From: Geminicoccaceae bacterium
GTDB taxonomy: Bacteria > Pseudomonadota > Alphaproteobacteria > Geminicoccales > Geminicoccaceae
Assembly (NCBI GenBank): GCA_036759485.1
Contig: DAIOUO010000001.1
Span: 1 to 45,488 of the forward strand
DNA: 45,488 nucleotides
Reading direction: 5' to 3'
Shown piece after piece: positions 1-16,748 of this stretch. Both the position numbers and the translations under genes were made by a program. Below the pieces are notes generated by a model, which saw only the letters and a program-made list of their open reading frames with translations, was not told the origin of the DNA and ran no database searches. Within the stretch, counting starts at the first letter, position 1. Every line of letters starts with the position of its first letter.

Positions 1-1410
1 GCCCGATGCCGCCGCTTCGGCGTCGTGGGCTCGGGCGAGGATCGAAACCGCTCGGTGGTAAGGGAGGCCACTCGCCGGAACGACCTCGCCCGAGGCGAGG
101 ACGAGCGACGCGTAAGGCGCGAGGTCGGCCACGAGCTCGAGCTTGGCCATGAGGCAGGCATCGAAGATCACGAGGTCGAGCGGTGCTTCCTCCTCGAGCC
201 CGTCGCGTAGAGCGGCGAGCAGCTCGTCGATGTCGAGCGCGTCCGCGGAACCGTCGTCGGTCGCGATCCGCGTGCCTGCGCCGTGGCCCCACAGGAGGAG
301 AGCGCGGCGCCGTGCCGGAAAGGTCGAGCGACCCCAACGAAGGAGCTCGCGCAAGAGCGCCGGATCCCCCGTGTTGCGCGGCCCGCGCGGCTCGACCACG
401 AGGCGGGGGGATTCGCCGGACGGCTCCGAAGAGGTCGCCGGCAACACGGCGAATCGGCCGCAGAGAGCCGCGTCGCGCGAATCGAGCTCGCCCGCCACGT
501 GGAGCCGATCGAGTTCGGGCGCCGCCGAGAGCTCCGCGAGGTCGGCCCGCAGCTCGCCCGCCAGATCGTTGTCGGCGGCCGCTAGGGTCAGCACCGCCCA
601 GCGGCGCATCGGCTGCCGGCCCAGGCCCGAGAGGCCCCCGCCGACCGCCGCGAATGACCGCCCGTCCGTCGCCGCCGCGAGCCGCCGACGCATCTCGGCC
701 AGCAGACGGCGGAACGGCGCCGTTCGGCTCAGGACGAAGCGCCTCGGGGGCGGGCCGGGCTCGCCGTGCAGCCGGGCGCGCAGCCGCCGCAGCAGGCGCG
801 CGGCATCGGCCCGCTTGGCGTCGACCATCGAGCGCCGCGCCCACCGTACGACGGCGTCCGCCCGCCGTGGCCCGACCGTCTCGCACAACACGGCCTCGAA
901 TGCCGCGCGCGTGCGTTCCGGATAGAAGCGGGCGGCGAGGGCGCGCGCGGCCGCCTCCGCTTCGCCGGCGCCGATCAGCCCGAGCCGCTCCAGGCGCGCG
1001 AGTGTGGCCCGGAGGTTCACCATGGGCTCGCTCAACGCCGGCCAGCCCAGTTCGGCCGGACCGTGCAGGAGCGCCACCTCGTCGTCGGCATCGAGGAGGC
1101 CGTCGCGGTAGGCGGCGAAGATCGTCCCCACCCCCTCCATGCCGAAGGGATGCAGCTCGGCCGCCCGCAACGCCCCCATGCTGGCGGCGCCGAGCACCGG
1201 GATGCCCGACTCGAGTGCCGCGAGTATCTCCTTGTGCCAGACCGCCGGCTCGTGGCCGAACACACCGTCGACGAGCCCGATCAGTCGTGCTCCCTCGCCG
1301 ACCGCGCGCAGCACGTCTCCTTGGGCGGCCGGCGGCAGCACGCGGATGCCGGGCAGCTCCAGGCGATGAAGGCGCGGGAAGCTCGGTCCGACGAACAGCA
1401 CGGCGCTCAC
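1..1410 (-). CDS. TfuA-like domain fused to a clostripain-like (peptidase C11) domain; partial, the C-terminus lies beyond the left window edge
   Basis: This minus-strand frame is open from 1410 to position 1 (470 codons) and is not in the supplied ORF track because it has no stop inside the window. GTG at 1410..1408 overlaps the YcaO TGA at 1409..1407. My translation starts VSAVLFVGPSFPRLHRLELPGIRVLPPAAQGDVLRAVGEGARLIGLVDGVFGHEPAVWHKEILAALESGIPVLGAASMGALRAAELHPFGMEGVGTIFAAYRDGLLDADDEVALLHGP, which matches TfuA hallmark stretches as I recall them. From about aa 266 it reads RRWAVLTLAAADNDLAGELRADLAEL...RRALLLWGHGAG...APLDLVIFDACLMAKLELVADLAPYA. These match the C11 N-terminal motif and the His/Cys dyad motifs (His codon about 285..283, Cys codon about 156..154). 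Confidence 0.8.
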   Translation of the reverse strand, partial: MSAVLFVGPSFPRLHRLELPGIRVLPPAAQGDVLRAVGEGARLIGLVDGVFGHEPAVWHKEILAALESGIPVLGAASMGALRAAELHPFGMEGVGTIFAAYRDGLLDADDEVALLHGPAELGWPALSEPMVNLRATLARLERLGLIGAGEAEAAARALAARFYPERTRAAFEAVLCETVGPRRADAVVRWARRSMVDAKRADAARLLRRLRARLHGEPGPPPRRFVLSRTAPFRRLLAEMRRRLAAATDGRSFAAVGGGLSGLGRQPMRRWAVLTLAAADNDLAGELRADLAELSAAPELDRLHVAGELDSRDAALCGRFAVLPATSSEPSGESPRLVVEPRGPRNTGDPALLRELLRWGRSTFPARRRALLLWGHGAGTRIATDDGSADALDIDELLAALRDGLEEEAPLDLVIFDACLMAKLELVADLAPYASLVLASGEVVPASGLPYHRAVSILARAHDAEAAASG

Positions 1411-2612
1411 GGCCGGGCTCCGAGCGCGCGAGCCCTGGGCCCCGGGACCCAACCCTCGAGGTCGAGCCCGTCCTCGAGGCCGGGCAGGAGGAGCTTGACG
1501 ACCGGCACGCCGACGTCGGGACGAGAGAGATCGACCAGGACCGGGCCGGGGATTCCCCGCCGTCCGAGGCGGTCGAGAAGCCTGGCCAGCTGGTCGACGG
1601 CCGGCAGAGCCGGATCCCAGGCTGGTGCCGACAGAAGCCGCCCACCCGGCCGTCGCAGGAGGTTGCGATGGTGGGCGAGCCGAGCCGGGTCGATCGCGGC
1701 GTAGCGATCGCGACCGATGTCGTCGCGCGAGCCCGTGATCTGCGTGAGCCTCGCCTGGACGGCCTCGAGGAGGGCGGCCAGAAGAGCGGCCTCCGGATCG
1801 GCCCGGCAGGCGCTGCCGAACTCCCAGCCGCCCGGATCGTGTGCGCGCGGGCGGTCGGCCACGAGATGGCAGAGGCAGACCGGCACGCCGAGGTCGGAGG
1901 TGACGTCCCAAGCACCCACGAGCATCTCGGCGTCCCGCAGCCGAGCGAGGAGGTCGCGAAGGTCCGCCCGGCGGACGGTCGCGAGGTCGATTCGGGTCGA
2001 GGCCCGATCGAAGGGATCGCGCAGGCCCCAAAGCGTCACCGCGTCCCGCTCGACCAGCTCGAGGAGGGCGTGCAGGGCCGCTTCCGCCGGTGTGCGGCCA
2101 CTCGCGAGGCCGCTCGTCGTGAGCGTGAAGCAGCCGCGCCCCGCCGGCGCAGGGAGTGTCGTGTCGAGCTCGACGAGCTCGGCCGGCACCATGATCGGGC
2201 GACCGCTCGCGAGATCGCGACCCGCGACCCAGGGGATCGGCAGGTCCGGCCGCAGACGGCTGCCGCGCGGTGGGCTCAACGCCGAAAGATCGAGGAACCC
2301 GGGATCGCCCGCGACCCGCGCCGGAGCGGCACGGAGCTCGGCCAGCCCCGGGGTCTCGGCATGCCAGGTCTCGATGCTCTCCATGAGCGCACCGGCGCGG
2401 GCCTGCTCCCGGGTGAGACCTTTGCCTTGGCTCACCGAGAGAGCCCGCCCGTTGGGCCGGCAGCAGACCGCCACGGGCACGCCCAGATGGTCGAGGCCGG
2501 TGACGTCCGCGAGGCGAGTGATGCCGAAGAGACCGAGGCGCGGCCGCAGCCAGCGGACGAGATCCTCGGCCGAGCCCACCGGCAGCGCGGGCCCGTCGGG
2601 AAGGCCGAGCAA
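1407..2612 (-). CDS. YcaO-domain protein (TfuA-associated type, ATP-dependent peptide backbone-modifying enzyme family)
   Basis: 401-aa ORF containing GITRLADVTGLDHLGVPVAVCCRPNGRALSVSQGKGLTREQARAGALMESIETWHAE (a YcaO-type S-x-GKG ... E-x-x-E stretch) and a proline-rich C-terminal region (GVPVVKLLLPGLE). The stop overlaps the downstream TfuA-like start as GTGA. The start is uncertain: TTG at 2612 or GTG at 2579, and neither has a strong SD. Confidence 0.9.
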   Translation of the reverse strand: MLGLPDGPALPVGSAEDLVRWLRPRLGLFGITRLADVTGLDHLGVPVAVCCRPNGRALSVSQGKGLTREQARAGALMESIETWHAETPGLAELRAAPARVAGDPGFLDLSALSPPRGSRLRPDLPIPWVAGRDLASGRPIMVPAELVELDTTLPAPAGRGCFTLTTSGLASGRTPAEAALHALLELVERDAVTLWGLRDPFDRASTRIDLATVRRADLRDLLARLRDAEMLVGAWDVTSDLGVPVCLCHLVADRPRAHDPGGWEFGSACRADPEAALLAALLEAVQARLTQITGSRDDIGRDRYAAIDPARLAHHRNLLRRPGGRLLSAPAWDPALPAVDQLARLLDRLGRRGIPGPVLVDLSRPDVGVPVVKLLLPGLEDGLDLEGWVPGPRARALGARP

Positions 2613-2656
2613 GGGATGGAGCGGGCGCCCCGGTCCCGGCCGGGGCGCCCACGCGC

Positions 2657-3058
2657 TCAGGCGCCGTCCGGACCGGCGGCGAAGCGCTGCTTGCCGGCGG
2701 TGGGGCCGACCGGCTCGGGCGCGTCGAACAGGCCGGCGGCGAAGCGCTGCTTGCCGCCCGCCGGCGCCGTGGGTTCGACCGCCTCGAGGAGACCCGGGGC
2801 GAAACGCTGCTTGCCACCCGAGGGGCTCCCGGCGTCGGCCTCGACGACCATCAGCCGGTCGCTCAGGAGAGCGCTCTTGAGCCCGGCGAGCGCCGGGGCG
2901 TTGTCGAGTGCGGCGATCACGCCGTCACCGGTCGGGCTGCCGCGCTGCTGATCGTCGGGCAGCCGGTAGCGGTCGACGAGATCGGCCAGCGGGACGAAGA
3001 ACAGGCTGTCGTCGCGGGCGCGCAGGAGCACGCCCGGCTGGTTGGGGAGATCGTTCAT
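2657..3058 (-). CDS. Candidate RiPP precursor peptide, 133 aa, with an ~80-aa leader-like N-terminus and three tandem C-terminal repeats
   Basis: ATG at 3058 is preceded by GGAG (plus-strand ctcc at 3065-3068) with a 6-nt spacer. Third-codon-position G+C is very high by hand count, unlike the overlapping plus-strand shadow ORF. The C-terminus reads SGGKQRFAPGLLEAVEPTAPA/GGKQRFAAGLFDAPEPVGPT/AGKQRFAAGPDGA. The gene lies 44 nt upstream of the YcaO gene on the same strand. Confidence 0.7.
   Translation of the reverse strand: MNDLPNQPGVLLRARDDSLFFVPLADLVDRYRLPDDQQRGSPTGDGVIAALDNAPALAGLKSALLSDRLMVVEADAGSPSGGKQRFAPGLLEAVEPTAPAGGKQRFAAGLFDAPEPVGPTAGKQRFAAGPDGA
2660..2818 (-). repeat. Three in-frame tandem repeats with an exact 60-nt (20-aa) period inside the precursor ORF
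   Basis: The identical 21-mer ggcggcgaagcgctgcttgcc occurs at 2675-2695 and 2735-2755. A third copy, cggggcgaaacgctgcttgcc, lies at 2795-2815 and matches 18 of 21 positions. The spacing is exactly 60 nt. The conserved peptide core is GKQRFA[AP]G, and the inter-core segments are more diverged. Confidence 0.85.
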
Positions 3059-3131
3059 CGGGCGCTCCGGTTGGGGGAGCTGGACGCGTCGCGGCCTCGG
3101 CCGCGAAGGCCTTATGGCCTATTATAGGACA
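3059..3131 (-). promoter_or_regulatory. Intergenic region upstream of the precursor gene: a perfect TATAAT, two short GC hairpins and the precursor SD
   Basis: On the minus strand, TATAAT corresponds to plus-strand attata at 3121-3126, in a locally AT-rich patch. Inverted repeats are aggcc-ttat-ggcct (3107-3120) and cgcggcc-tc-ggccgcg (3090-3105). No good -35 lies at 17 nt; the TTGACT that overlaps the bpt stop is only 7 nt away. The hairpins could equally be a weak bpt terminator. Confidence 0.35.
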
Positions 3132-3893
3132 TTAGTCAAGATCCTTCCTCGGATCTCGGTCGGAGCCATCGACCTCGGACTCGTCCAATGGCCGCCACAC
3201 CCAGCCCTCGAGCGCCTCGAGCGGCCGGAAACGCCGCTTGTAGGCCATCTTGCGACAATCGGCGATCCAATAGCCCAGATAGACGTAGGGCAACCCGAGC
3301 TCGCGCGCGCGCTGGACGTGCCAGAGAATGAGCAAGGTTCCGAGCGAGCGGTCCGGCTCCTCCGGCTCGAAGAACTTGTAGACGCCCGAGAGACCGGAGG
3401 CGACATAGTCGGTGAGGCTCACCGCCATCAGCCGCCCGTCGGTTCGCCGCAGCTCGATCAGCCGGGTCGAGCGCCCGGTCTCCTCGACCATCTCGACGAA
3501 ATCGCGCCAGCCCATCTCGGCCATGCCACCGTCGCCGTGGCGCGCCTGGATGTAGCGGCGGAACAAGAGGAACTGCTCGTCGGTCGCCCGAGCCGGCCGC
3601 TCGCTCGGCCGGAGGTCGGCGTTCCTCTTGAGAATCTTGCGGAACGTTCGCCTCGGTACGAAGTCCGCCACCCTGATGCGCGTCGGTATACAGGCCCGGC
3701 AGTCGGGGCAAGCGGGCTTGTAGAGGAAGCGCTGGCTACGGCGGAAGCCGGCCGCGGTGAGCTGGTCGAGCAGCGTCTCCTCTTCCGCCGGGTCGAGGAC
3801 CGTGACGAGCCGGCGCTCGAGAAGCCCCGGTCGATAGGGACAGGGCGAGAGCTCGGTCGCATAGAACCGGCGGTTCGGGGTCGAGCCGTCCAA
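3132..3893 (-). CDS. bpt: Arginyl/leucyl-tRNA--protein transferase of the Bpt (bacterial Ate1-like) family
   Basis: The sequence RRFYATELSPCPYRPGLLERRLVTVL...GFRRSQRFLYKPACPDCRACIPTRIRV...LGTLLILWHVQRARELGLPYVYLGYWIADCRKMAYKRRF is typical of Bpt. The listed 353-aa ORF over-extends at the N-terminus. I place the start at the in-frame TTG at 3893 (codon 101 of the listed ORF), preceded by GAGGA. The start is uncertain. Confidence 0.8.
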   Translation of the reverse strand: MDGSTPNRRFYATELSPCPYRPGLLERRLVTVLDPAEEETLLDQLTAAGFRRSQRFLYKPACPDCRACIPTRIRVADFVPRRTFRKILKRNADLRPSERPARATDEQFLLFRRYIQARHGDGGMAEMGWRDFVEMVEETGRSTRLIELRRTDGRLMAVSLTDYVASGLSGVYKFFEPEEPDRSLGTLLILWHVQRARELGLPYVYLGYWIADCRKMAYKRRFRPLEALEGWVWRPLDESEVDGSDRDPRKDLD

Positions 3894-3951
3894 GCGGTCC
3901 TCGTCACGCTGCGGCGACGATGGAGCCGGATGCGGGATCGCCGGCCGCTCG

Positions 3952-4161
3952 TCAATGGCCGCGCGACAGACGCAGGAGGGCGCGGGCGACGGCGAGCGAG
4001 CGTTCGACCAGCACGAGCGGTGGCACGAACACCACGAGCCACGCGAACACCGCCTCGACGGCGAGCGCCGAGGGATCCGTGCTGCGGCCGGCGCAGAGGA
4101 GGTAGAGCAGCCCCACGAGCGTGGCCGAAGCGAGAAGGTAGAGCAGAACCAGGCGTCGCAC
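3952..4161 (-). CDS. Small hydrophobic membrane protein (69 aa), function unknown
   Basis: GTG start at 4161 is preceded by GGAGG. GC3 is high. Two hydrophobic segments are present (LVLLYLLASATLVGLLYLLCA and AVFAWLVVFVPPLVLV). Confidence 0.5.
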   Translation of the reverse strand: MRRLVLLYLLASATLVGLLYLLCAGRSTDPSALAVEAVFAWLVVFVPPLVLVERSLAVARALLRLSRGH

Positions 4162-4226
4162 GGCACCTCCGTTGACGACAGCTTGTCAGACAACTATCCT
4201 AGGAACGTCAGCAGACGAGAGCCGCG

Positions 4227-4520
4227 ATGAAGGAGCTGCTCGGGACCCTAGTCCGCGCCGCCCGGCGCTTCGCCGGCTACGGAGGGAGCCGGATCGTCCT
4301 GCGCGCGACCGGCGAGCCGGTCCGCATCTTGGGCGTTCGAAGCCCTGCCGACCCGGAGGATCGCGCCTGCCTCGTCGAGACGTCGAGCGGCGAGATCCGC
4401 CTCGTTCGCCCCGAGGAGCTCGCCGGCGACGGCCCGGCCCCGATCGAGGCCGTCCTTCTCCAGCTGGCGCTGGCCCTTGCCGCCGGTGTGGCTACCCTGG
4501 CCACGCTCGGCGCTCGCTGA
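4227..4520 (+). CDS. Hypothetical protein (97 aa) with a C-terminal hydrophobic segment
   Basis: ATG ORF with high GC3 and no recognisable family. Confidence 0.45.
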   Translation: MKELLGTLVRAARRFAGYGGSRIVLRATGEPVRILGVRSPADPEDRACLVETSSGEIRLVRPEELAGDGPAPIEAVLLQLALALAAGVATLATLGAR

Positions 4521-4536
4521 GCGGTCTCGGCCTCGC

Positions 4537-4761
4537 TCAGCCCACGAGCCCGTGCAGGATCGCCCGCAACAGGCCCCAGAGCCGCCCGTCCTCGAACAGA
4601 CGCTGCACCAGCAGGGTGAGCGTGGCACCGAGGCAGGCGGCAGCCGCGATGCCCGTCGGCCCCACCCCGGCACGGGGCGGCCGCGGCGGTCGCGCGACGG
4701 CGTCCTCGGGAGCCTCGCGTCCGCCGATGTTCACCGCGAAGCGTTCGACGGGTCGAATCAT
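4537..4761 (-). CDS. Hypothetical small membrane protein (74 aa)
   Basis: ATG is preceded by GGAGAC. GC3 is high. One hydrophobic segment is present (GIAAAACLGATLTLLV). Confidence 0.4.
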   Translation of the reverse strand: MIRPVERFAVNIGGREAPEDAVARPPRPPRAGVGPTGIAAAACLGATLTLLVQRLFEDGRLWGLLRAILHGLVG

Positions 4762-4891
4762 GGTCCGTCTCCGGCGCGTCTCGTCGCGCGAGAAAAGACC
4801 ACGACCGGCCGCGGACAGAGTTAAAGATTCGTGAAGAAGGTCGAGCAGCCGTCCCCGGTTACGCCTCGCCGTTCACGATTCGTCACCGCCC

Positions 4892-6883
4892 TCAGACGTC
4901 GAGCCCGGTGACCTGGAGCGCATGTTCCTGGATGTAGGCGAGCCGCAGCTCCGGCCGCCGGCCCATCAGCCGCTCGACCAGCTCGGCCGGTGAGCGACCC
5001 GCCACGTCCTCGAGCCGGACCCGCAGGAGCTGACGACGCGCCGGGTCCATCGTGGTCTCGCGCAGTTGCGCAGGGTTCATCTCGCCGAGGCCCTTGAACC
5101 GACCGACCTCGACGTTGCGTTTGCCCTTGAAAACGGTGGCGAGGAGCCGCTCACGGTCGCGCTCGTCGCGGGCATAGGCGACGAGCCCGCCGGCGGAGAG
5201 GCGGTAAAGGGGAGGTTGGGCCAGGAACAGATGGCCGTGCTCGATGAGCGGCCGCATCTCGCGAAAGAAGAAGGTCAAGAGGAGTGCCGCGATGTGCGCT
5301 CCGTCGACGTCCGCGTCGGTCATCACGATGACACGCTCGTAGCGCAGATCGTCGAGCTTCAGCCGCGCACCCGTGCCACAACCGAGCGCGGTCACGAGGT
5401 CCTGCAGTTCGCGGTTGGCGGCGAGCTTGTCGGTGGTCGCCGCGGCGACGTTCAGGATCTTGCCGCGGAGCGGCAGGATCGCCTGGGTTTCCCGGTCGCG
5501 GGCCTGCTTGGCCGAGCCGCCCGCCGAATCGCCCTCGACGATGAAGAGCTCGGTGCCCTCGCGACCCTCGCGCGCACAGTCGGCGAGCTTGCCCGGCAGT
5601 CGGAGCTTGCGAGTGGTGCTCTTGCGGCCGACCTCCTCCTTCGCCTTGCGGCGCGCGAGCCGTTCCTCGGCGCGGCTGACGAGCACGTCGAGCAGCCGGC
5701 CCGCCTCGGCCGGATGACCGGCGAGCCACAGCTCGAAGCGGTCCTTGAGCGCAGCCTCGACCAGCCGGCCGGCATCCGGGCTCACCAGGCGCTCCTTGGT
5801 CTGCCCCTGGAACTGGGGCTCGCGGACGAACAGCGAGAGCAGAACCGCCGCGCCGCCGAGCACGTCCTCGCCGGTCAGGAGCTGGGCCTTCTTGAGCCCG
5901 GCCCGCTCGGCGTGCGCCTTGAGGCCCTTGAGCAGTGCTGCGCGAAGCCCGGCCTCGTGGGTGCCGCCCAAGGGCGTGGGAACGGTGTTGCAGTACCAGC
6001 CGGCATAGCCCTCCTCGTCGGCCGGCCAGGCCACCGCCCACTCGACCCGACCGCCCCCCTCGAGCTCGGCCTCGCCGGTGAACGGCTCGTCGATGACCCG
6101 AGGGCGGCCGGCGAGCAGGCTCTCGAGAAAGTCGCCGAGGCCCCTCGGGAAGTGGAATACCTCCTCGGCCGGAACCGCGTCCCCGGGCTGCAGCAACGCC
6201 GGGTCGCAGCGCCAGCGGATCTCGACTCCACGGAAGAGATAGGCCTTCGAGCGGGCCATGCGGTGCAGCAGGACCGGCCGGAAGCGCACCGAGGCCGGGA
6301 AGATCGTCCGATCGGGTACGAAGCTCACGGCGGTGCCGCGGCGGTTCGGGGCGGCACCGACCCGCTCGACCGGGCCGAGCGGCTGTCCGCGCCGGTAACG
6401 CTGACGGAAGAGCTCGCGGTTGCGTGCGACCTCGACCTCGAGCTCCTCGGCGAGCGCGTTGACCACCGAGACACCCACCCCGTGCAGCCCGCCCGCGGTG
6501 GCGTAGGCCTTGCCCGAGAACTTGCCGCCCGAATGCAGGGTGGTGAGGATGACCTCGAGTGCGCTCTTGTCGGGAAAGCGCGGGTGCGGCTCGACCGGGA
6601 TACCGCGGCCGTTGTCGCGGACCGTGACGCGCTCGCCCGGCCCGAGTTCGAGCTCGATGCCTGTGGCGTGGCCGGCCACGGCTTCGTCCATCGCGTTGTC
6701 GAGGAGCTCGGCGACGAGGTGGTGCAGCGCCCGCTCGTCGGTCCCGCCCACATACATGCCCGGCCGGCGGCGGACCGGCTCGAGGCCTTCGAGGACCTCG
6801 ATGTCGTGCGCCGTGTAGCTGTCCTTGGCGACGGCCGGTCCGGCATCCCGGCCGGCCTCGACGCCGTCGAGCAGGTCTCCCAT
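4892..6883 (-). CDS. parE: DNA topoisomerase IV subunit B
   Basis: From the internal ATG at 6883 the sequence reads MGDLLDG...YTAHDIEVLEGLEPVRRRPGMYVGGTDERALHHLVAELLDNAMDEAVAGHA...RDNGRGIPV...LHGVG...ELFIVEGDSAGGSAKQARDR...QAILPLRGKILNV. This is a type IIA topoisomerase B subunit of 663 aa, a length that fits ParE rather than GyrB. The 601 codons upstream in the listed ORF are antisense to the TPP-enzyme gene and are rejected. Confidence 0.9.
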   Translation of the reverse strand: MGDLLDGVEAGRDAGPAVAKDSYTAHDIEVLEGLEPVRRRPGMYVGGTDERALHHLVAELLDNAMDEAVAGHATGIELELGPGERVTVRDNGRGIPVEPHPRFPDKSALEVILTTLHSGGKFSGKAYATAGGLHGVGVSVVNALAEELEVEVARNRELFRQRYRRGQPLGPVERVGAAPNRRGTAVSFVPDRTIFPASVRFRPVLLHRMARSKAYLFRGVEIRWRCDPALLQPGDAVPAEEVFHFPRGLGDFLESLLAGRPRVIDEPFTGEAELEGGGRVEWAVAWPADEEGYAGWYCNTVPTPLGGTHEAGLRAALLKGLKAHAERAGLKKAQLLTGEDVLGGAAVLLSLFVREPQFQGQTKERLVSPDAGRLVEAALKDRFELWLAGHPAEAGRLLDVLVSRAEERLARRKAKEEVGRKSTTRKLRLPGKLADCAREGREGTELFIVEGDSAGGSAKQARDRETQAILPLRGKILNVAAATTDKLAANRELQDLVTALGCGTGARLKLDDLRYERVIVMTDADVDGAHIAALLLTFFFREMRPLIEHGHLFLAQPPLYRLSAGGLVAYARDERDRERLLATVFKGKRNVEVGRFKGLGEMNPAQLRETTMDPARRQLLRVRLEDVAGRSPAELVERLMGRRPELRLAYIQEHALQVTGLDV

Positions 6884-7012
6884 CCTCGGCTCCCGATCGG
6901 CGCGCCGGCGCCTCGCTTGACCGTGCCGGCCGGCCCGCCCACGATTCGGCGAGGTCCGTCTATCGCGACAGTCGAGCCGTGGCCAGGGCCCGCGCGCTCG
7001 CGGGGAGGAGGC

Positions 7013-8716
7013 ATGGGGGAACCCCGCGTCGAGACCGCCGCAGAGGCCCTCCTCGTCCGTCTGGCGCAGCGCGGGGTCGAGTTCGTCCTGGCCAACGCAG
7101 GGACCGATTTCGCCCCCTTGATCGAAGGGCTCTGCCGGCTCCGGTCGGTCGGCACGGCCGTGCCCGAGATGCTGGCGATCGCCCACGAGAGCGTCGCCGT
7201 GGCGATGGCGCACGGCTACTGGCTCGTCACCGGCCGACCGCAGGCGGTGATGCTGCACACCAATGTCGGGCTCGCCAACGCGGTCATGGGTCTGATCAAC
7301 GCCGCCGCCGACGAGGTCCCGATGCTGGCCCTTTCGGGGCGGACGCCCGTGACCGAGACGGGGCGCGTCGGTTCGCGCGACCTGCCGATCCACTGGGGCC
7401 AGGAGATGCGCGACCAAGCGGCGATGGTCCGCGAGCTCACCAAGTGGGACTACGAGCTGCGCTTTCCCGAGCAGGTCGCGGATCTCGTCGACCGGGCGCT
7501 CGCGATCGCGGCGAGCCCGCCCGGGGGTCCGGTCTATCTGAGCCTGCCGCGCGAGGTTCTGTGCGCGCCTCGCTCGGAGTTGCTCGATCCGACCCCGCGC
7601 CAGGTACCGGCCGCTTCCTCGCGGCCCGATCCAGCGGCGATCGCCGAGGCGGCCGAATGGCTCGCCCGGGCCGAGCGGCCGCTCGTGGTGGCTCAGCGCA
7701 GCGGGCGCGACGCCGCCGGCATGGCGGCCCTGGTCCGTCTCGCCGAAGCCGCCGCGCTGCCGGTCGTCGAGCATTGGCCCGTGCGGATCTCGTTCCCGGC
7801 CGATCACCCGCTGCACGCCGGTTTCGACCCGCATCCCTTGGTCCGCGAGGCGGATCTGATCATCGCCGTCGACGCACCGGTTCCCTGGCTGCCGGGGCGA
7901 GCGGCCCCGCCGCCCGACTGTCGGGTCGTCACGCTCGGCGCCGATCCCTTGCACGCGCGGATCCCCGTCCGCTTCTGGCCGGCCGATCTCGTGCTCGCCG
8001 GGGATCCGACGGCCACCCTCGAGGCGCTCGCCGATGCCGTGAGCGAACGGCTGGGCGACGAGCAGGAGCGCCTCGCGCGGCGCAGAGCGGGGATCGGCAC
8101 GCTGAACGCGGCCTGGCGGGCGGCCGCGGCCGAACAGGCCGAGCGCGGCTCCGGCACTCCCATGAGCCCCGCCTGGGTCGGCCGCTGCTTGGCCCGCGCG
8201 ATCGGCGAGGACGGTGTGGTGTTCGCGGAGCTCGGCGTCGATCCGGCCCAGCTCGGTCGCACCCGGCCGGGCAGCTGGTTCAACCACGCCCTCTCGGGCG
8301 GTCTCGGCTGGGCGTTGCCGGCGGCGCTCGGCGCACAGCTCGCCGACCGCGACCGGCTCGTCGTCGCCACCGTCGGCGACGGCTCCTACCTGTTCGCCAA
8401 CCCGGTGGCCTGTCACCAGGTCGCAGCGGCGAACCGGCTGCCCGTGCTCACGATCGTGCTCGACAACGGCATGTGGAACGCGGTCCGCAAATCGACCCTC
8501 GCGGTCTATCCCGAAGGCCAGGCCGCGCGCGCCAACCGCATGCCGCTCACCGCCCTCGAGCCGCGACCCGATCACGCCGCGGTCTGCAGCGCCTGCGGCG
8601 GCTGGGGTCGACGGGTACGGGAGGGCGAGGCCTTGCCGGATGCGCTCGCCCAAGCCCTCCGGGTCGTGCGCGAGGAACGCCGGCAAGCCCTGCTCCAGGT
8701 CGAGGTGACGCCGTGA
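7013..8716 (+). CDS. Thiamine pyrophosphate-binding enzyme (acetolactate synthase large-subunit-like family)
   Basis: ATG at 7013 follows GGGGAGGAGG. The N-terminal region reads AEALLVRLAQRGVEFVLANAGTDFAPLIEGL...HESVAVAMAHGYW. The C-terminal TPP motif reads GGLGWALPAALGAQLA...VATVGDGSYLFANP...LTIVLDNGMWNAV. The substrate is not determinable by eye. Confidence 0.85.
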   Translation: MGEPRVETAAEALLVRLAQRGVEFVLANAGTDFAPLIEGLCRLRSVGTAVPEMLAIAHESVAVAMAHGYWLVTGRPQAVMLHTNVGLANAVMGLINAAADEVPMLALSGRTPVTETGRVGSRDLPIHWGQEMRDQAAMVRELTKWDYELRFPEQVADLVDRALAIAASPPGGPVYLSLPREVLCAPRSELLDPTPRQVPAASSRPDPAAIAEAAEWLARAERPLVVAQRSGRDAAGMAALVRLAEAAALPVVEHWPVRISFPADHPLHAGFDPHPLVREADLIIAVDAPVPWLPGRAAPPPDCRVVTLGADPLHARIPVRFWPADLVLAGDPTATLEALADAVSERLGDEQERLARRRAGIGTLNAAWRAAAAEQAERGSGTPMSPAWVGRCLARAIGEDGVVFAELGVDPAQLGRTRPGSWFNHALSGGLGWALPAALGAQLADRDRLVVATVGDGSYLFANPVACHQVAAANRLPVLTIVLDNGMWNAVRKSTLAVYPEGQAARANRMPLTALEPRPDHAAVCSACGGWGRRVREGEALPDALAQALRVVREERRQALLQVEVTP

Positions 8717-9159
8717 GCGGTGCCGAAAGCCCTTCGCGGGCCGGCCGCGTCCCCGCGGTCCGCACCCTCGCCATGCCGGCCGACACCAATCCCTCGGGCG
8801 ACATCTTCGGCGGGTGGCTCTTGGCGCAGATGGACATCGCCGCCGGGACCGTGGCGCACGATCGGGCCCGTGGCCGGGTCGTCACCGTGGCACTCGACGC
8901 GATGGCCTTCCACGCGCCCGTCTATGTGGGCGATCTCGTGAGCTGCTACGCCGAGGTCGTGCGAGTGGGCCGGACGTCCCTCACCCTCCATGTCGAGGCC
9001 TGGGCGCGACGCGGCCGGACGGGCGAGGAGGTCAGGGTGACCGAGGGGCGGTTCACCATGGTCGCCGTCGACCGGGAGGGGCGACCGCGCCCCGTGCCAC
9101 CGGGGGAGGACCCGTCGGGCCCGGCGGAGGGAGAGCGGAACGCCCCTCAGAGACCGTAG
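8713..9159 (+). CDS. Acyl-CoA thioesterase, YciA-like hotdog fold
   Basis: GTG at 8713 overlaps the upstream TGA (GTGA). The sequence VRTLAMPADTNPSGDIFGGWLLAQMDIAAG...VVTVALDAMAFHAPVYVGDLVSCYAEVVRVGRTSL is typical of the family. Confidence 0.85.
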   Translation: MSGAESPSRAGRVPAVRTLAMPADTNPSGDIFGGWLLAQMDIAAGTVAHDRARGRVVTVALDAMAFHAPVYVGDLVSCYAEVVRVGRTSLTLHVEAWARRGRTGEEVRVTEGRFTMVAVDREGRPRPVPPGEDPSGPAEGERNAPQRP

Positions 9160-10556
9160 TAGAGCTGGAACTCGACCGGGTGCGGGGTGGTGTCGACGAG
9201 CTCGATCTCGCGCCGTTTCAAGGCGATGTACGCCCGAATGAGGTCGGCCGACATGACCTCCCCGGCGAGCAGGAACTCGTGGTCCTCCTCGAGCGCGGCG
9301 AGCGCCTCGTCGAGCGAGCGGGCCACGGTCGGCAGATCCTGGACCTCCTCGGGCCGCAGGTCGTAGACGTTGCGGTCCATGGCGTCGCCCGGCTCGAGCT
9401 TGCGCTCGACCCCGTCGAGACCCGCCATGAGGATCGCGGTGAAGGCGAGATAGGGGTTGGCCGAGGGGTCGGGAAAGCGGACTTCGATCCGCTTGCGCTC
9501 CGGCCGCGCGGCGTAGGGAATACGGATCGCGGCCGACCGGTTGTGTGCGGCGTAGGTCAGAAGCGTCGGCTCCTCCGCTCCGTGCCGCAGCCGCTTGTAG
9601 CTGTTGGTCGTGGGGTTCGTGAACGCGTTGAGCGCCCGGCCGTGCTGGATGATCCCGGCGATGAAGGAGAGGCAGGTCGGCGACAGATCGGCGTAGCCCT
9701 GACCCGCGAAGACCGGACGGTCGCCCCGCCAGAGTGCCTGGTGCACGGCGAGACCCGAGCCCGGCTCGTCGGCCAGTGGCCGCGGCATGAAGGTCGCCGA
9801 CTTGCCGTAGGAAGCGGCCACCTGGTGCGCGCAATATTTGAGGATCTGTACCCGGTCGGCGGTCGCGAGGAGCCCGGCGGCGGCGAAGCTCATCCGGTTC
9901 TGCAGGGTCGCCGCGCCATGGTCGTGCTGCACCCGGCCGAAGCCGAGGCTCACGAGGATGCTCGCGAGCTCGGCGCGGATGTCGCTCATGTGGTCGGAGG
10001 GCGGCAGAGCGAGCTGGGCGGCTCCCGGATGGGGTCGATGCCCCGGGTTGCCCGGATGATAGGCCTGCGCTCCGGCCGCCCGCCCTTCGCTCCCGGACAG
10101 GCGAAAGGCGGCCGCGCTCGACCCGACCTCGATCCGCACGTCGTCGAAGAGGAAGAAGAACAGCTCGGCACCGACCGTGACTCGGTCGGCGATCCGCTGG
10201 CGGGCGAGCCAGGCCTCGGCGCGCGCAGCGGCCGAGCGGGGGTCGCGCTCGTAGCCGGTCCCGGCCGCCGGGTCGGCGGCATCGCAGAGGATCACGAGGG
10301 TCGGCTGAGCAGCGAACGGATCGAGAAAGGTGGCCGAGAGATCGGGGCGCACGAGCAGATCCGCCTCGCTCACTTCCCGCCAGCCCGGCACCGCCGAGCC
10401 GTCGATCATCAAGCCGTGCTCGAGGATCTCGCGGTCGACGCTCGCGGCGTCGATCGTCGTGTGGCGCCAACGGCCGCCGAGGTCGGTGAAGCGGAGATCG
10501 ACCATCCGCACCCCTTCCCGGCCGATACGCTCCAGGACCGCCTCGACCTCGGCCAT
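9147..10556 (-). CDS. glnA: Glutamine synthetase type I
   Basis: 469 aa. The N-terminal beta-grasp region reads VRMVDLRFTDLGGRWRHTTI...MIDGSAVPGWR. The catalytic-domain motifs include KPLADEPGSGLAVHQAL and NSYKRL. Confidence 0.95.
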   Translation of the reverse strand: MAEVEAVLERIGREGVRMVDLRFTDLGGRWRHTTIDAASVDREILEHGLMIDGSAVPGWREVSEADLLVRPDLSATFLDPFAAQPTLVILCDAADPAAGTGYERDPRSAAARAEAWLARQRIADRVTVGAELFFFLFDDVRIEVGSSAAAFRLSGSEGRAAGAQAYHPGNPGHRPHPGAAQLALPPSDHMSDIRAELASILVSLGFGRVQHDHGAATLQNRMSFAAAGLLATADRVQILKYCAHQVAASYGKSATFMPRPLADEPGSGLAVHQALWRGDRPVFAGQGYADLSPTCLSFIAGIIQHGRALNAFTNPTTNSYKRLRHGAEEPTLLTYAAHNRSAAIRIPYAARPERKRIEVRFPDPSANPYLAFTAILMAGLDGVERKLEPGDAMDRNVYDLRPEEVQDLPTVARSLDEALAALEEDHEFLLAGEVMSADLIRAYIALKRREIELVDTTPHPVEFQLYYGL

Positions 10557-10709
10557 GAACCCTCCATCGCTTTCCCTCCGCTGTAGCGCACCCCCGGTAC
10601 GCGGTGGAAGGCCCGCTCGAGGGCTCGTTCACCGTCCTTCAACCGTGACCTCGGAGAACTGCTTCGACCGTCGCGGCGGGCGACCGCGCTTCGCATCGGA
10701 GACCAGCGC

Positions 10710-10934
10710 ATGGCGGACGCGATCGCCTATGCCCATGCCGGGTACGTGCTCTGCGCCGTGCCTTCGGGAAGGGGTTGGCAGGCGCGGGCGCTCCTCGGCG
10801 AGTGTACGATCGCCGGAGCCGAAGGACCCACCCCCGATCTGGCGCTCGAGCGGGTCAAGGCCGCGCTCGAGCGCCTACCGCGTCAGCCGGTGCCCGCTTC
10901 CCACGAGCGTGCCTCGAGCCAGGCGAGCAGCTGA
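10710..10934 (+). CDS. Hypothetical protein (74 aa)
   Basis: ATG ORF with moderately high GC3. Its 3' end overlaps the convergent hydrolase gene by about 50 nt. No recognisable family. Confidence 0.3.
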   Translation: MADAIAYAHAGYVLCAVPSGRGWQARALLGECTIAGAEGPTPDLALERVKAALERLPRQPVPASHERASSQASS

Positions 10935-11596
10935 GCCGTCACCGCCTCGGGCCGCTCGAGGGGTGCGAGGTGGCCGCAGTTCGGCAACACGACGAGCGTG
11001 GCCTCCGGAATCGCTGCTGCCATCTCCTCGTGCAGCGAGGGCGGCGTCAGCCGATCCTGACGGCCGCACAACACGAGCGTCGGGCAGCGGATGGACGCGA
11101 GCAGCGGTCGGCTGTCGGGCCGCTCCAGGATCGCCCGCTGCTGGCGCAGGAACGCCTCTTTGCCGACCGCCGCCGCCATCGCGGTCACGACCGGTCCGAG
11201 CCGCTCGAGGTGGTCCGGGTGCAGGAACAAGGGCAGGAGGCGCGGCGCCACGCCCAGGAACTCGCCGCGCTCGGCGAGCGCCACGAGGTCCCGGCGGCGC
11301 TGCGCGGCCTCGGTCGTGTCGCCGCGGGCTTGCGTGTCGAGAAGAGCGAGCCGGGTGACCCGGTCGGGTGCCCGACGCACCACCTCGAAGCAGACATAGC
11401 CCCCCATGGAGAGGCCGGCGAGGGCGAACCGTTCCGGTGCCGCGGCCAAGAGCCGCTCCGCCATCGCCCCTAGGCTGTCGTCGAGCCGCGTCTGCGCGAC
11501 ACTGACCGCCGTGCGGGCGGCGAGCGCCGGGAGCTGTGGAGCGAAGAGACGCTCGTCGCACAGCAGGCCCGGCACCAGGATCAGAGGCTCGCTCAC
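10883..11596 (-). CDS. Alpha/beta-fold hydrolase
   Basis: GTG at 11596 overlaps the upstream TGA (GTGA). The sequence reads VSEPLILVPGLLCDERLF..., with the nucleophile elbow GLSMGG and a C-terminal NCGHLAPLERPE. The longer listed ORF (to 12055) overlaps the isochorismatase gene out of frame. Confidence 0.8.
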   Translation of the reverse strand: MSEPLILVPGLLCDERLFAPQLPALAARTAVSVAQTRLDDSLGAMAERLLAAAPERFALAGLSMGGYVCFEVVRRAPDRVTRLALLDTQARGDTTEAAQRRRDLVALAERGEFLGVAPRLLPLFLHPDHLERLGPVVTAMAAAVGKEAFLRQQRAILERPDSRPLLASIRCPTLVLCGRQDRLTPPSLHEEMAAAIPEATLVVLPNCGHLAPLERPEAVTAQLLAWLEARSWEAGTG

Positions 11597-12156
11597 GACG
11601 GCCGTCCCTCGCGGATCCAAGGGGCGATGGTCCGGAACTCCTCGGTGCCGGCGCGCTCCAGCCACTCGAAGAGCACCATCTCGACATCGACGACGTCGCA
11701 GCCTCCCGCACGCATGCGCTCCAACGCGAGCGCTCGGCTCTCCGGGCGGCGCGAGCCGACGGCGTCGGCGACGACGGCGACCCGGAAACCTTCGGTACGG
11801 AAGCCGAGCGCGCTCTGCAGCACGCAGACATGGGCTTCCATCCCCGTGAGCAGGACGGTGCGCCGACCGGTGGTCCGGACGGCCTCGAGGATCCCCGGGT
11901 CCCGGGCGCAGGAGAACGCGGTCTTGGCGAGCCTCGGGGCGTTGCCGAGGCTCTTCTTCAAGGCCTCGACCGTTTCGCCCAGGCCCCTCGGATACTGCTC
12001 CGACGCGACCACCGGCACGGCCAGCCGGCGCGCCGCTTCGACCAGCAGCCGGCAACGGTCGATCACCATCGGACCGTCGGCGATCACCGGGGCCAGGCGT
12101 TCCTGAACATCGACCACGAGCACGAGGCAGTCGCCGCGCGCGAGCAGCTCGGACAT
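11593..12156 (-). CDS. Isochorismatase-family cysteine hydrolase
   Basis: The internal ATG at 12156 is preceded by GGAGGAGGGG. The sequence MSELLARGDCLVLVVDVQERL...VVASEQYP...VLLTGMEAHVCVLQSAL is typical of the family. Confidence 0.85.
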   Translation of the reverse strand: MSELLARGDCLVLVVDVQERLAPVIADGPMVIDRCRLLVEAARRLAVPVVASEQYPRGLGETVEALKKSLGNAPRLAKTAFSCARDPGILEAVRTTGRRTVLLTGMEAHVCVLQSALGFRTEGFRVAVVADAVGSRRPESRALALERMRAGGCDVVDVEMVLFEWLERAGTEEFRTIAPWIREGRPS

Positions 12157-12297
12157 CGTCCCCTCCTCCGCTCCCGACGCGAGAAGGGTCCGGCCGCGGC
12201 GGTTTGTCAAACGGCTCGCCCGTTCGTTGACAAGTGCAAAGCGGTGACTACCTAGAAGGTCGGACCACCAGATCAACGAGATCGGAACAACCGTACT

Positions 12298-13773
12298 TTG
12301 TCAGAGACCAACGCTCCCCGCTTCGAGGATCTCGGCCTGCGCGACGAGATTCTCCGGGCGGTGGCGGAGGCCGGCTACGTGGAGCCGACCCCCATCCAGG
12401 CGCGGGCGATCCCCGCGATCCTCGCCCGCCGCGACGTGATCGGGATCGCCCAGACGGGCACCGGCAAGACCGCGTCCTTCGTCCTGCCGATGCTCCACAT
12501 CCTGGCCTCGGGCCGAGGCCGAGCGCGGATGCCGCGCTCGCTGATCCTCTCCCCGACGCGCGAGCTCGCAACCCAGACCGCCCGCAATTTCGAGATCTAC
12601 GGCAAGCATCTCAACCTTTCCATGGCGCTCTTGATCGGCGGGGTCGGCATGGGCGATCAGGAGCGACTCTTGGACAAGGGCGTGGACGTCCTGATCGTCA
12701 CGCCCGGTCGCCTCCTCGACTGGTACGAGCGAGGCCGGATCCTACTGGGAGGTGTCGAGATCCTGGTGATCGACGAAGCCGACCGGATGTTCGACATGGG
12801 GTTCATGCCCGATGTCGAACGAATCGTCTCGCTCCTCCTCGGCCGCAAGCAGACGCTTCTGTTCTCGGCGACGATGCCGCCGGAAGTGCGCCGGCTGGCC
12901 GAGCGATTCCTGCACGATCCGGTCGAGATCCAGGTGGCCCGGCCGGCCAGCAAGGCCGAGAACGTCGAGGACTTCGTGGTGGAAGTCTCGCGCGACCACA
13001 AGCGCGCCGTGCTCGTCCAGCTCATCCGCAGTCAGGCCGTGCCGAAGGCGATCGTGTTCTGCAACCGAAAGCGCGATATCGGCGCGGTGATGCGACATCT
13101 GCAACGAGCCGGCCTGAACGCCCGTGATCTCCATGGCGACCTCGAGCAGGTCCATCGCCAACAGACCCTCGACCAGTTCACCTCCGGTGCGATCGATTTT
13201 CTCGTCGCCACGGATGTCGCTGGCCGCGGCCTCGACATCTCCGACATGCCGGTCGTGATCAACTTCGACGTGCCGATGAACCCGGAGGACTATGTCCACC
13301 GGATCGGCCGCACCGGCAGGGCGGGCCGCAAGGGCCGGGCCTTCACGCTCGTGACACCGGAGGACGCCCGTTACCTGGTCGCGATCGAGAAGCTCACGAA
13401 GCGGGCGATCCCGCGCCTGAGCCTGGGCGAGGATCGGGCGGCGAAGGAGACGGAGGCGGTCGCCGAGCGGTCCGGAGCCGAGCGCGGGCCGGCATCCGCT
13501 TCCGCCGGCTCCGACGGGCGCCGGCGTCGGGCTCCGGCCACACAGCGCGCGGCACCCGCGGCGCCTGCGGCGCGCGAGCCCGCGGCGGCCCACCAGGCAG
13601 CCGAGAGCAGGCCGGCCCCGGCGAGGCGCGAGCCGGCACGTCGCCTCGAGGTGGCGGCGCGGCGACGGCCCGAGGCGCGGCGGGAGGTCGGCGAGGAGCG
13701 TCCGGTCGTGGCGTTCGGCGAGCACGTGCCGCGCTTTTTGATGACCGAGCCGCGGCTTCGAAAGTCGGCTTGA
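12298..13773 (+). CDS. rhlE: DEAD-box ATP-dependent RNA helicase with an Arg/Ala-rich C-terminal tail
   Basis: The sequence contains a Q-motif region (FEDLGL...PTPIQARAIP), Walker A (AQTGTGKT), DEAD (VIDEADRM), SAT, and HRIGRTGRAG. Confidence 0.92.
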   Translation: MSETNAPRFEDLGLRDEILRAVAEAGYVEPTPIQARAIPAILARRDVIGIAQTGTGKTASFVLPMLHILASGRGRARMPRSLILSPTRELATQTARNFEIYGKHLNLSMALLIGGVGMGDQERLLDKGVDVLIVTPGRLLDWYERGRILLGGVEILVIDEADRMFDMGFMPDVERIVSLLLGRKQTLLFSATMPPEVRRLAERFLHDPVEIQVARPASKAENVEDFVVEVSRDHKRAVLVQLIRSQAVPKAIVFCNRKRDIGAVMRHLQRAGLNARDLHGDLEQVHRQQTLDQFTSGAIDFLVATDVAGRGLDISDMPVVINFDVPMNPEDYVHRIGRTGRAGRKGRAFTLVTPEDARYLVAIEKLTKRAIPRLSLGEDRAAKETEAVAERSGAERGPASASAGSDGRRRRAPATQRAAPAAPAAREPAAAHQAAESRPAPARREPARRLEVAARRRPEARREVGEERPVVAFGEHVPRFLMTEPRLRKSA

Positions 13774-16671: not shown

Positions 16672-16748
16672 GCGCCCGTAGCTCAGCCGGATAGAGCATC
16701 CGCCTTCTAAGCGGAGGGTCGCAGGTTCGAGCCCTGCCGGGCGCACCA
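16672..16748 (+). tRNA. tRNA-Arg, anticodon TCT
   Basis: The cloverleaf was folded by hand. The acceptor stem is gcgcccg/cgggcgc. The anticodon stem is tccgc/gcgga with loop cttctaa (anticodon at 16706-16708). The T arm is gcagg-ttcgagc-cctgc. The discriminator is A, and CCA is encoded. Confidence 0.95.

Follow-up and report, generated by a model that had tools for sequence, protein, structure and literature searches.

At the left end of a 45,488-nt stretch of DNA from a Geminicoccaceae bacterium (assembly GCA_036759485.1, contig DAIOUO010000001.1, positions 1 to 45,488 of the forward strand; hereafter the window), the minus strand of positions 1-3131 carries three co-directional genes, for a 133-aa candidate precursor peptide, a YcaO protein and a fusion of a TfuA domain with a clostripain-like peptidase (TfuA::Peptidase_C11; Table 1). 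Their sequences make it fairly probable that they form a three-gene operon for a leader-guided, multi-core pathway to a thioamide-containing peptide made by ribosomes and modified post-translationally (RiPP), and that this pathway has a C11 maturation protease of its own. The cassette, which is ~3.6 kb in size, is tightly packed: 44 nt separate the precursor gene from the YcaO gene, and the TGA of the latter overlaps the GTG start of the fusion gene by 4 nt as GTGA, i.e., by translational coupling. The original prediction had described three minus-strand genes, namely an open reading frame (ORF) with a leader-like N-terminus and three C-terminal repeats, a YcaO gene downstream of it and a TfuA-C11 frame left open at the window edge. 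All of this was confirmed by the ORF with its motif positions and 60-nt repeat units, by a full-model match of the YcaO protein to PF02624, and by 470 open codons with both Pfam matches in the fusion. In the profile hidden Markov model (HMM) check that it had proposed, YcaO, TfuA and Peptidase_C11 all scored above the curated Pfam thresholds.

The precursor ORF is a real gene under purifying selection, since it carries the coding signature of the genome (GC contents of 0.80/0.52/0.91 at codon positions 1/2/3), has homologues and shows pairwise dN/dS values of 0.15-0.44 among six orthologous loci, with its leader and core halves alike. Among the same six loci, the variable alignment columns by codon position numbered 38/34/80, and 17 homologues were found at E ≤ 0.01 among 5.8 billion proteins. 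In the precursor alignment (A1), the N-terminal block LFFVPL..L..RYRLPDDQQRG is invariant or near-invariant, with YRL..DQQ.G invariant throughout. The repeats, of which there are 2 or 3 copies per protein in this alignment, have an invariant G, K and F each (G81, K83 and F86 in the first, where R85 is nearly so), and the motif recurs in the window precursor with a period of exactly 20 aa. TRF, when run on the repeat region, missed the 60-nt repeats and returned an irrelevant 8-nt array. The whole peptide has no Cys; from G81 on it has no Ser and only two Thr (T97 and T120), as had been stated for the repeat region, while S78 and S80 sit just ahead of repeat 1. An AlphaFold2 (AF2) model of the precursor, with a predicted local distance difference test (pLDDT) score of 58, has at moderate confidence a β-hairpin at residues 9-23 and helices at 24-30 and 42-53, whereas most of 62-133 is of low confidence and without regular structure; residues 77-133 make up the predicted disordered multi-core region. 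A partly ordered N-terminus followed by an unstructured tail fits the expected leader-then-core shape. No Pfam or NCBIfam family was matched by the precursor or by nine distant homologues, so the leader does not belong to the annotated domains of the NHLP/Nif11 type.

In a scan of one genome per species, nine species had the precursor; they comprise Geminicoccaceae or unclassified alphaproteobacterial/Pseudomonadota metagenome-assembled genomes (MAGs) and, as a cultured strain, Geminicoccus harenae CPCC 101083. A TfuA gene is also listed for G. roseus DSM 18922. An exhaustive profile search among 1.84 billion cluster representatives yielded 26 clusters at 50% identity, which makes this a rare family. 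Its members share an N-terminal region of ~70 aa, through which the distant ones were mainly recovered, followed by a C-terminal part with one or a few [KR]-x-[KR] motifs. The cores of this wider family include GGKEKF, GAFKPK, (G)AFRPRV and SGTGxRxKT and come in three flavours, GGK[QDE][RK][FY], F[KR]P[KR]V and SGTGx[KR]xK, in which the only residues conserved throughout are the two basic ones, one apart. The [KR]-x-[KR] motif is present in 37 of the 41 tabulated family members, nearly all of which have 1-3 copies, and such a varying copy number is typical of multi-core precursors. Several members (P0142 and P0145-P0148; e.g., positions 82-849 of locus L021) are proteins of 247-263 aa that contain two complete leader-core units in tandem. 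Many members outside the Geminicoccaceae have an extra C-terminal "follower" motif, approximately [ST]P..RS.RAW[ST] or FDE..SY.A[YF], which the window precursor lacks.

These features bear on whether the small protein is cut at all. It could instead stay whole, either thioamidated and functional while intact, like McrA or uL16, or as an accessory or regulatory factor, with the C11 domain serving autoprocessing or turnover. YcaO enzymes do thioamidate the full-size proteins McrA and uL16 (PMC13063428), the first 70 residues show unusual conservation and some structure, and no exporter lies in the cassette. We nevertheless consider an intact product quite unlikely, given that the C-terminal half is predicted to be disordered, that the repeats vary in number and keep as their sole invariant a dibasic motif that suits the specificity of the protease conserved along with them, and that the duplication of the whole leader-core unit in some relatives is precursor-like.

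The enzymes of the cassette point to thioamide chemistry. The YcaO protein, a predicted ATP-dependent enzyme that activates backbone amides, matches the PF02624 model over its full length (E = 2.3e-72; 244 bits vs. a cutoff of 25.7). Its nearest curated model is TIGR03266 (McrA-glycine thioamidation), and its best match in the PDB is MJ1094 of M. jannaschii (6pe3; E = 5e-21). Residues 48-167 of the fusion match the TfuA family PF07812 (E = 3.9e-44), and its TfuA domain matches the crystallized TfuA 6xp8 by sequence (E = 5.6e-32) and, as an AF2 model, with a template modelling (TM) score of 0.79. Neither an E1-like/Ocin-ThiF partner nor an azoline dehydrogenase is found among the Pfam-called neighbours in any locus. 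With such a partner missing and the nearest relatives (6pe3 and TIGR03266) being thioamide-forming, thioamidation, which had been offered, along with other amide-activating YcaO reactions, as the natural guess, would be the natural reading of the sequences. By its gene content, the locus has the attributes of a TfuA-related RiPP cluster, i.e., a YcaO gene, an adjacent TfuA gene and, beside them, a small ORF that combines a conserved leader with a variable core and accompanies the enzymes from locus to locus, and it has no E1-like or dehydrogenase partner.

YcaO enzymes form azolines and amidines besides thioamides. The present one might thus make an amidine with the Lys ε-amine or the N-terminus, or an azoline at the Ser/Thr preceding GG, with TfuA in a non-sulfur or auxiliary role; each motif has a conserved Lys, and Ser or Thr precedes GG in many repeats. 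The latter position is not conserved, however, as A, G, R, V and Q occur there too, and this alternative would leave the full-length TfuA domain, which is fused into the operon and matches well a structurally characterized TfuA of thioamidation, and the lack of azoline-type partners in any locus to be explained. Given further that all YcaO-TfuA pairs characterized in the papers examined make thioamides (PMC6511847; PMC8120280), we regard chemistry other than thioamidation as very improbable.

Beyond the TfuA domain, residues 339-463 of the fusion match Peptidase_C11 (PF03415; E = 2.7e-20; 73.7 bits vs. a cutoff of 25.8). The match is above the cutoff also in P0025, a full-length relative of 650 aa to which the fusion is 87% identical over all 470 aa, and 22 protein clusters contain both the TfuA and the Peptidase_C11 Pfam domains. 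The motifs ADNDL (279-283), WGHG (374-377) and FDAC (416-419) are invariant in alignment A3, in fused and unfused versions alike, and H376, D417 and C419 are invariant in both A3 and A7. As the window copy is cut off before its C-terminal domain, the fold was assessed on an AF2 model of P0025 (pLDDT of 80), which matches 9cip (clostripain; E = 2e-16), 6n9j (Bacteroides C11), 6mzo and 3uws (E values from 1e-5 to 2e-16). From this model, a caspase-like α/β/α fold is predicted for the peptidase, followed in full-length relatives by a C-terminal domain. In PmC11, the corresponding residues are His133 and Cys179, Asp177 is the S1 residue, and Arg or Lys is accepted at P1 (PMC4850288). The intact S1 Asp and the two basic residues in each core fit cleavage by C11 at these sites; that it cuts this precursor after Arg/Lys is thus suggested by the S1 Asp and by the R-to-K covariation of the motif described below. 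The N-terminus of the fusion is the TfuA domain and there is no signal peptide, which argues for intracellular processing.

The fusion gene is open at the window edge because of an assembly break within the C11 domain more than because of where the window was cut: the ENA contig NODE_380 (26.6 kb; L010), which is 100% identical to window positions 1-13058, ends 4 nt past window position 1, and the Logan contig L011 likewise breaks inside the fusion gene. The nearest full-length version of the fusion is on a 184-kb MAG contig (L012) with 90% DNA identity. On the opposite strand (+) of window positions 143-2951, long antisense ORFs of up to 922 aa (183-2951) that are rich in Arg, Pro and Ala cover the cassette; they were rejected as genes, being artefacts of the sort that a genome of 70% GC typically shows on the opposite strand, where stops are few.

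Two types of loci were found in the Geminicoccaceae. In type I (L001-L007 and L010-L019), which have precursor, YcaO and TfuA::C11, the gene order is parE, small ORFs, bpt, precursor, YcaO, TfuA::C11 (637-651 aa) and a thiamine pyrophosphate (TPP) enzyme. In type II (L008, L009 and L020, the last from G. harenae, with the cassette at positions 5962-9327), the order of small ORF, YcaO and fusion is kept, the flanks differ and the fusions are only 37-40% identical; the precursors keep the leader and have the motif GGKDKF, in which the second basic residue has changed from R to K and is still basic. Genome contexts of the wider family were obtained for P0145, P0149, P0168 and P0154, and a fourth locus with separate genes (L050) came from the C11 scan described below. 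The contexts of P0145, P0149 and P0168 and locus L050 have the same enzymes as separate genes. Locus L021 contains precursor, YcaO, TfuA (263 aa), C11 (404 aa) and an ATP-grasp gene, while L023, L050 and L107 have YcaO, TfuA and C11 convergent with the precursor; the contig of L108 stops inside the gene adjoining the precursor. The GC contents of these distant loci range from 52 to 73%, so they belong to different organisms. Since YcaO, TfuA and C11 are all present on every longer contig examined, as separate genes outside the Geminicoccaceae, the C11 protease is, as far as gene content tells, a conserved component of the cassette, of which the fusion is the Geminicoccaceae variant. The expectation that homologous loci would have a repeat-bearing small ORF upstream of YcaO held for all the Geminicoccaceae loci examined, as well as for the distant loci with separate genes.

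The converse association was examined in a metagenome scan of C11 relatives with the C11 alignment A5, from which the best 80 loci were analyzed. The leader HMM matched only ORFs beside YcaO, TfuA and C11 in these loci, and no YcaO or TfuA neighbour was found for 73 of the 80. Thus, C11 as such is not RiPP-specific, and the association runs only from the precursor and YcaO/TfuA to C11. The standalone C11 peptidases (L032-L106; 362 tblastn-confirmed matches) are ~380 aa long and 25-35% identical to the C11 of the cassette. An all-vs-all BLAST of the ORFs flanking them in L032-L052 gave only frame or antisense artefacts overlapping C11 and no conserved partner.

On these grounds we propose the following pathway. 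The 133-aa product would be the precursor, whose conserved leader of ~70 aa docks on the YcaO/TfuA::C11 machinery while its disordered tail presents three copies of the short core GGKQRF. With ATP, YcaO would activate (phosphorylate) a backbone amide within or beside each core, and the TfuA domain would supply the sulfide that turns this amide into a thioamide. A passage of PMC13063428 that cites Liu et al. (2021) describes TfuA as the hydrolase by which thiocarboxylated ThiS-like carriers hand sulfide equivalents on to YcaO enzymes that form thioamides. By analogy with the Pro-Arg thioamide of thiovarsolin, the x-[R/K] bond, which here is Gln-Arg, may be the one that carries the thioamide; the thioamide itself and its position are both drawn from such comparisons. 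Tethered to TfuA, the C11 domain would be held at the modification complex, where it may cut after Arg85, Arg105 and Arg125, and possibly also after the Lys two residues before each, so that every precursor would yield several short, basic thioamide peptides. The size of the product and its biological role are likewise deduced.

Several observations weigh against this pathway. The scores of YcaO against TIGR03266 (182.1 bits vs. an equivalog cutoff of 365) and of the TfuA domain against NF033432 (177.3 vs. 235.2) are below the equivalog cutoffs, so the two proteins are not orthologues of those in the McrA system and are, on sequence, relatives rather than orthologues of the proven thioamidase. 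Neither a ThiS-like gene nor a dedicated exporter was found in the cassette, most of the C11 relatives stand apart from YcaO and TfuA, and the family is rare and known mostly from metagenomes. The spacers between the motifs (FAPGLLEAVEP...) are also fairly conserved and, in this subfamily, the second basic residue is always followed by Phe, so the released product could be longer than the motif. For ThiS, three small ORFs of the window were considered and rejected: one has DUF2905, another has an AsnC-type domain and the third has no Pfam match, in a search that was not exhaustive.

A longer product could take the form of the ~20-residue segments between the cleavage sites, FAPGLLEAVEPTAPAGGKQR and FAAGLFDAPEPVGPTAGKQR, left linear or cyclized head to tail by C11 transpeptidation, as legumain-type enzymes do with plant cyclotides. 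The moderately conserved spacers, the period of exactly 20 aa and the P1' Phe that is invariant in the Geminicoccaceae-like subfamily would all agree with this, and the AF2 model of the protease weakly matches the clan CD legumain and peptide asparaginyl ligase structures too. What makes such 20-mers unlikely is that members with a single motif (P0154 and P0162-P0168), or with one motif per leader unit (P0145-P0146), have no segment between sites, and that it is the motif and not the spacer that is conserved across the family; moreover, we know of no C11 enzyme that acts as a ligase. No evidence of cyclization was found for the cassette.

Most relatives other than the window locus have a further gene beside the precursor. 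It encodes a TolB-like sensor module of ~320 aa with tetratricopeptide repeats (TPR), whose fusion partner is an adenylate/guanylate-cyclase domain in some loci and a BTAD (transcriptional-activator, DNA-binding) domain in others; the modules of L020 and L023 are 33% identical (E = 1e-49). The gene adjoins the precursor in the type II Geminicoccaceae loci and in L022, L023, L025, L050, L107 and L108. No sensor homologue was matched by tblastn anywhere in the 45-kb window, and in the type I locus bpt occupies that position. The description of the cassette as "minimal" does not hold for the family as a whole, in which most of the other relatives add this neighbouring TPR sensor/regulator. Such a neighbour may point to a regulator dedicated to the pathway or to a sensor of its peptide. 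A more elaborate scheme, to which we would assign a low probability, is a five-part peptide-signalling or autoregulated system of precursor, YcaO, TfuA, C11 and TPR sensor, in which C11 would free a short dibasic thioamidated peptide that the sensor perceives; in the lineage of the window, the sensor would have become separated from the locus and the protease would have been joined to TfuA. If that were true, C11 would be a new class of RiPP maturation protease.

In the 73-nt spacer between bpt and the precursor gene, the ribosome-binding-site region CGGAGCCGCCGATG is conserved in the type I loci, and TCCTATAA, at a TATAAT-like box, is partly conserved across nine loci; among the type I loci it is conserved. 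A TATAAT box is unusual in DNA of 70% GC. Following it, at positions 3081-3120 (-), are two short GC-rich palindromes, AGGCC-ATAA-GGCCT and TCGCGGCC-GA-GGCCGCGA, which are less conserved among the type I loci than TCCTATAA. The box and palindromes could be a promoter/operator or the terminator of bpt. Scans of the minus strand of positions 1-4300 for sigma-70 promoters and terminators called none, the TATAAT-like box included.

The gene upstream of the spacer, bpt (3132-3896, -), is co-directional with the precursor gene and encodes an aminoacyl-tRNA-protein transferase of the bpt/ATE family (ATE_N and ATE_C), an enzyme of the N-degron pathway. Its synteny is limited to the type I Geminicoccaceae loci, and this arginyl/leucyl-tRNA protein transferase family member was rejected as a fourth component of the cassette, being absent from the type II and distant loci. 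It should be noted that a C11 cut after Arg would leave an N-terminal Phe, which is a primary bacterial N-degron, on each downstream fragment; the link with the neighbouring bpt is probably a coincidence. Between parE and bpt are three small ORFs at 3952-4161 (-), 4227-4520 (+) and 4537-4761 (-), of 69, 97 and 74 aa, respectively. The first two have coding-like GC at the third codon position, matching small genes are found in L001, L005 and L010, the 69-aa ORF resembles a membrane peptide, and none of the three has a Pfam match. On the other side of the cassette, genes for zinc uptake/Zur lie downstream in L001 and L005. A metallophore link was rejected as synteny only; of such genes, the type II loci retain just one of the Fur family at a distance of several kb, and there are none in L021, L023 and L107. 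Of the loci L001 and L005, only the former has an EamA gene downstream. Directly beside the YcaO end of three distant loci is a DUF2336 gene (L023, 11968-13077; L107, 10935-12056; L050, 2644-3624; 35-47% mutual identity), which does not occur in the Geminicoccaceae loci. A tRNA-Arg(TCT) gene at 16672-16748 (+) is the sole Rfam or ARAGORN match in the window.

Table 1. Features of the cassette in the window (window positions) and sensor genes adjoining the precursor in related loci (positions within the locus named).
Feature	Location	Strand	Remarks
TfuA::Peptidase_C11 fusion	1-1410	-	First 470 of ~650 codons; C-terminal ~180 aa beyond window/contig end
TfuA domain, residues 3-211	778-1404	-	NF033432 covers 3-211
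Peptidase_C11 domain, N-terminal part, residues ~272-470	1-597	-	ADNDL motif and predicted catalytic centre
Putative catalytic His376 codon (WGHG)	283-285	-	From alignment; aligns to HG of 6n9j
Asp417-Ala-Cys419 (FDAC), putative S1 specificity Asp and catalytic Cys	154-162	-	From alignment A3
YcaO gene, 401 aa from TTG start	1407-2612	-	Predicted ATP-dependent backbone-amide activating enzyme; PF02624
Precursor-peptide gene, 133 aa	2657-3058	-	ORF call; stop codon 2657-2659
Leader-like region, residues 1-76	2831-3058	-	Part conserved across the whole wider family
Three tandem 60-nt (20-aa) core repeat units	2671-2850	-	Repeat search: 3 copies 60 nt apart, 72% identical
Core motif 1 GGKQRF, residues 81-86	2801-2818	-	Predicted modification site and C11 cleavage after Arg85
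Core motif 2 GGKQRF, residues 101-106	2741-2758	-	G101, K103 and F106 invariant
Core motif 3 AGKQRF, residues 121-126	2681-2698	-	Copy missing in 2-repeat relatives
GGAG, putative ribosome-binding site	3065-3068	-	From sequence; 6 nt before precursor ATG
TATAAT-like box, possible -10	3121-3126	-	In bpt-precursor spacer; no canonical -35 at 17 nt
Sensor gene	L020 4014-5795	-	
Sensor gene	L008 4578-6335	-	
Sensor gene	L023 5666-7747	-	
Sensor gene	L107 4740-6488	-	
Sensor gene	L108 5354-6790	-	
Sensor gene	L022 2-1618	+	
Sensor gene	L050 ~7818-9812	+	

The closest precedent for the cassette is the thiovarsolin system of Streptomyces varsoviensis (varA/varY/varT), whose product is Ac-Ala-Pro(CS-NH)Arg, a thioamidated xPR tripeptide (Santos-Aberturas et al., 2019; PMC6511847). 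Both systems combine YcaO and TfuA with a precursor that has imperfect C-terminal repeats (1-5 copies among the var relatives), and in the thiovarsolin system the precursor, YcaO and TfuA suffice for the thioamidated product. The Arg-ending Pro-Arg thioamide of thiovarsolin would have its analogue in the x-[R/K] of the present cores, of which one subfamily has F-R-P-R. The var cluster, in contrast, is found in an actinobacterial host and has no protease, housekeeping peptidases being invoked instead, whereas C11 is conserved here and is fused to TfuA in the Geminicoccaceae. It also adds a heme-oxygenase-like protein (VarO), an ATP-grasp ligase, an amidinotransferase and a major facilitator superfamily (MFS) transporter. 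Neither in the window nor in the full-length relatives is the cassette flanked by any of the accessory genes for VarO, ATP-grasp ligase and amidinotransferase, an ATP-grasp gene being found only in L021.

The McrA thioglycine system (TIGR03266 and NF033432; 6pe3 and 6xp8) provides the best-scoring curated models and structures for both enzymes; it too has a YcaO without an E1-like partner, and a Gly-rich target would be plausible here as well. Its substrate is, however, a large enzyme subunit and not an adjacent small ORF, it includes no protease, it belongs to methanogens and not to aerobic Alphaproteobacteria, and the cassette scores well below its equivalog cutoffs. Thioamitides (thioviridamide and thioholgamide) and thioamidated thiopeptides likewise have backbone thioamides installed by YcaO-TfuA on a ribosomal precursor. 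These pathways need, in addition, cores rich in Cys, Ser and Thr and enzymes for dehydration, formation of aminovinyl-methylcysteine (AviMeCys), methylation and other steps. None of these further enzymes was found in the neighbourhood of the cassette, and its precursor is devoid of Cys, so the cassette does not encode a thioamitide.

With clostripain and PmC11 (MEROPS family C11, clan CD), the protease shares the fold, the His/Cys dyad, the S1 aspartate in D-x-C, the N-terminal ADN motif and, in full-length relatives, the C-terminal domain. Clostripain and the Bacteroides C11 enzymes are secreted or surface proteases for digestion or processing, while the C11 described here lacks a signal peptide and is encoded together with RiPP tailoring enzymes, as a fusion or in an adjacent gene. 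The cysteine families named in a review of RiPP proteases from 2023 include C39, C1A, C96 and C75, and C11 is not on its list (PMC10885120). In the multi-core precursors of the cyanobactins and of the plant cyclotides/orbitides, several cores are also freed by a pathway protease that recognizes a short flanking motif, and the protease of the cyclotides (asparaginyl endopeptidase) belongs to clan CD too; these proteases are S8 subtilisin-like PatA/G or C13 legumain, however, and the modification chemistry is different.

The literature searched contained no paper joining TfuA/YcaO with clostripain/C11, or TfuA with Geminicoccus, in agreement with the suspicion voiced in the original prediction that this combination had not been characterized. 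Two Geminicoccus TfuA accessions occur in Malit et al. (2021), in a supplementary input table only; the locus itself has probably received the generic label "TfuA-related" without being described. The enzymology of YcaO with TfuA has precedent, and so does the multi-core logic, in thiovarsolin. What appears to be new, judging from the sequences, is the precursor family, with its leader of ~70 aa and its [KR]-x-[KR] cores, together with an apparently obligatory C11 partner protease.

Few natural products with backbone thioamides are known, and several of them are bioactive. With TfuA and C11 joined in one protein, sulfur delivery and proteolysis would seem to take place in a single complex, which bears on how TfuA, YcaO and the substrate engage each other. 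Rather than a new principle, the cassette is a compact and tractable natural-product lead that also occurs in the cultured strain G. harenae CPCC 101083, and the TPR sensor conserved in most of its relatives hints at signalling or autoregulation rather than at a simple antibiotic.

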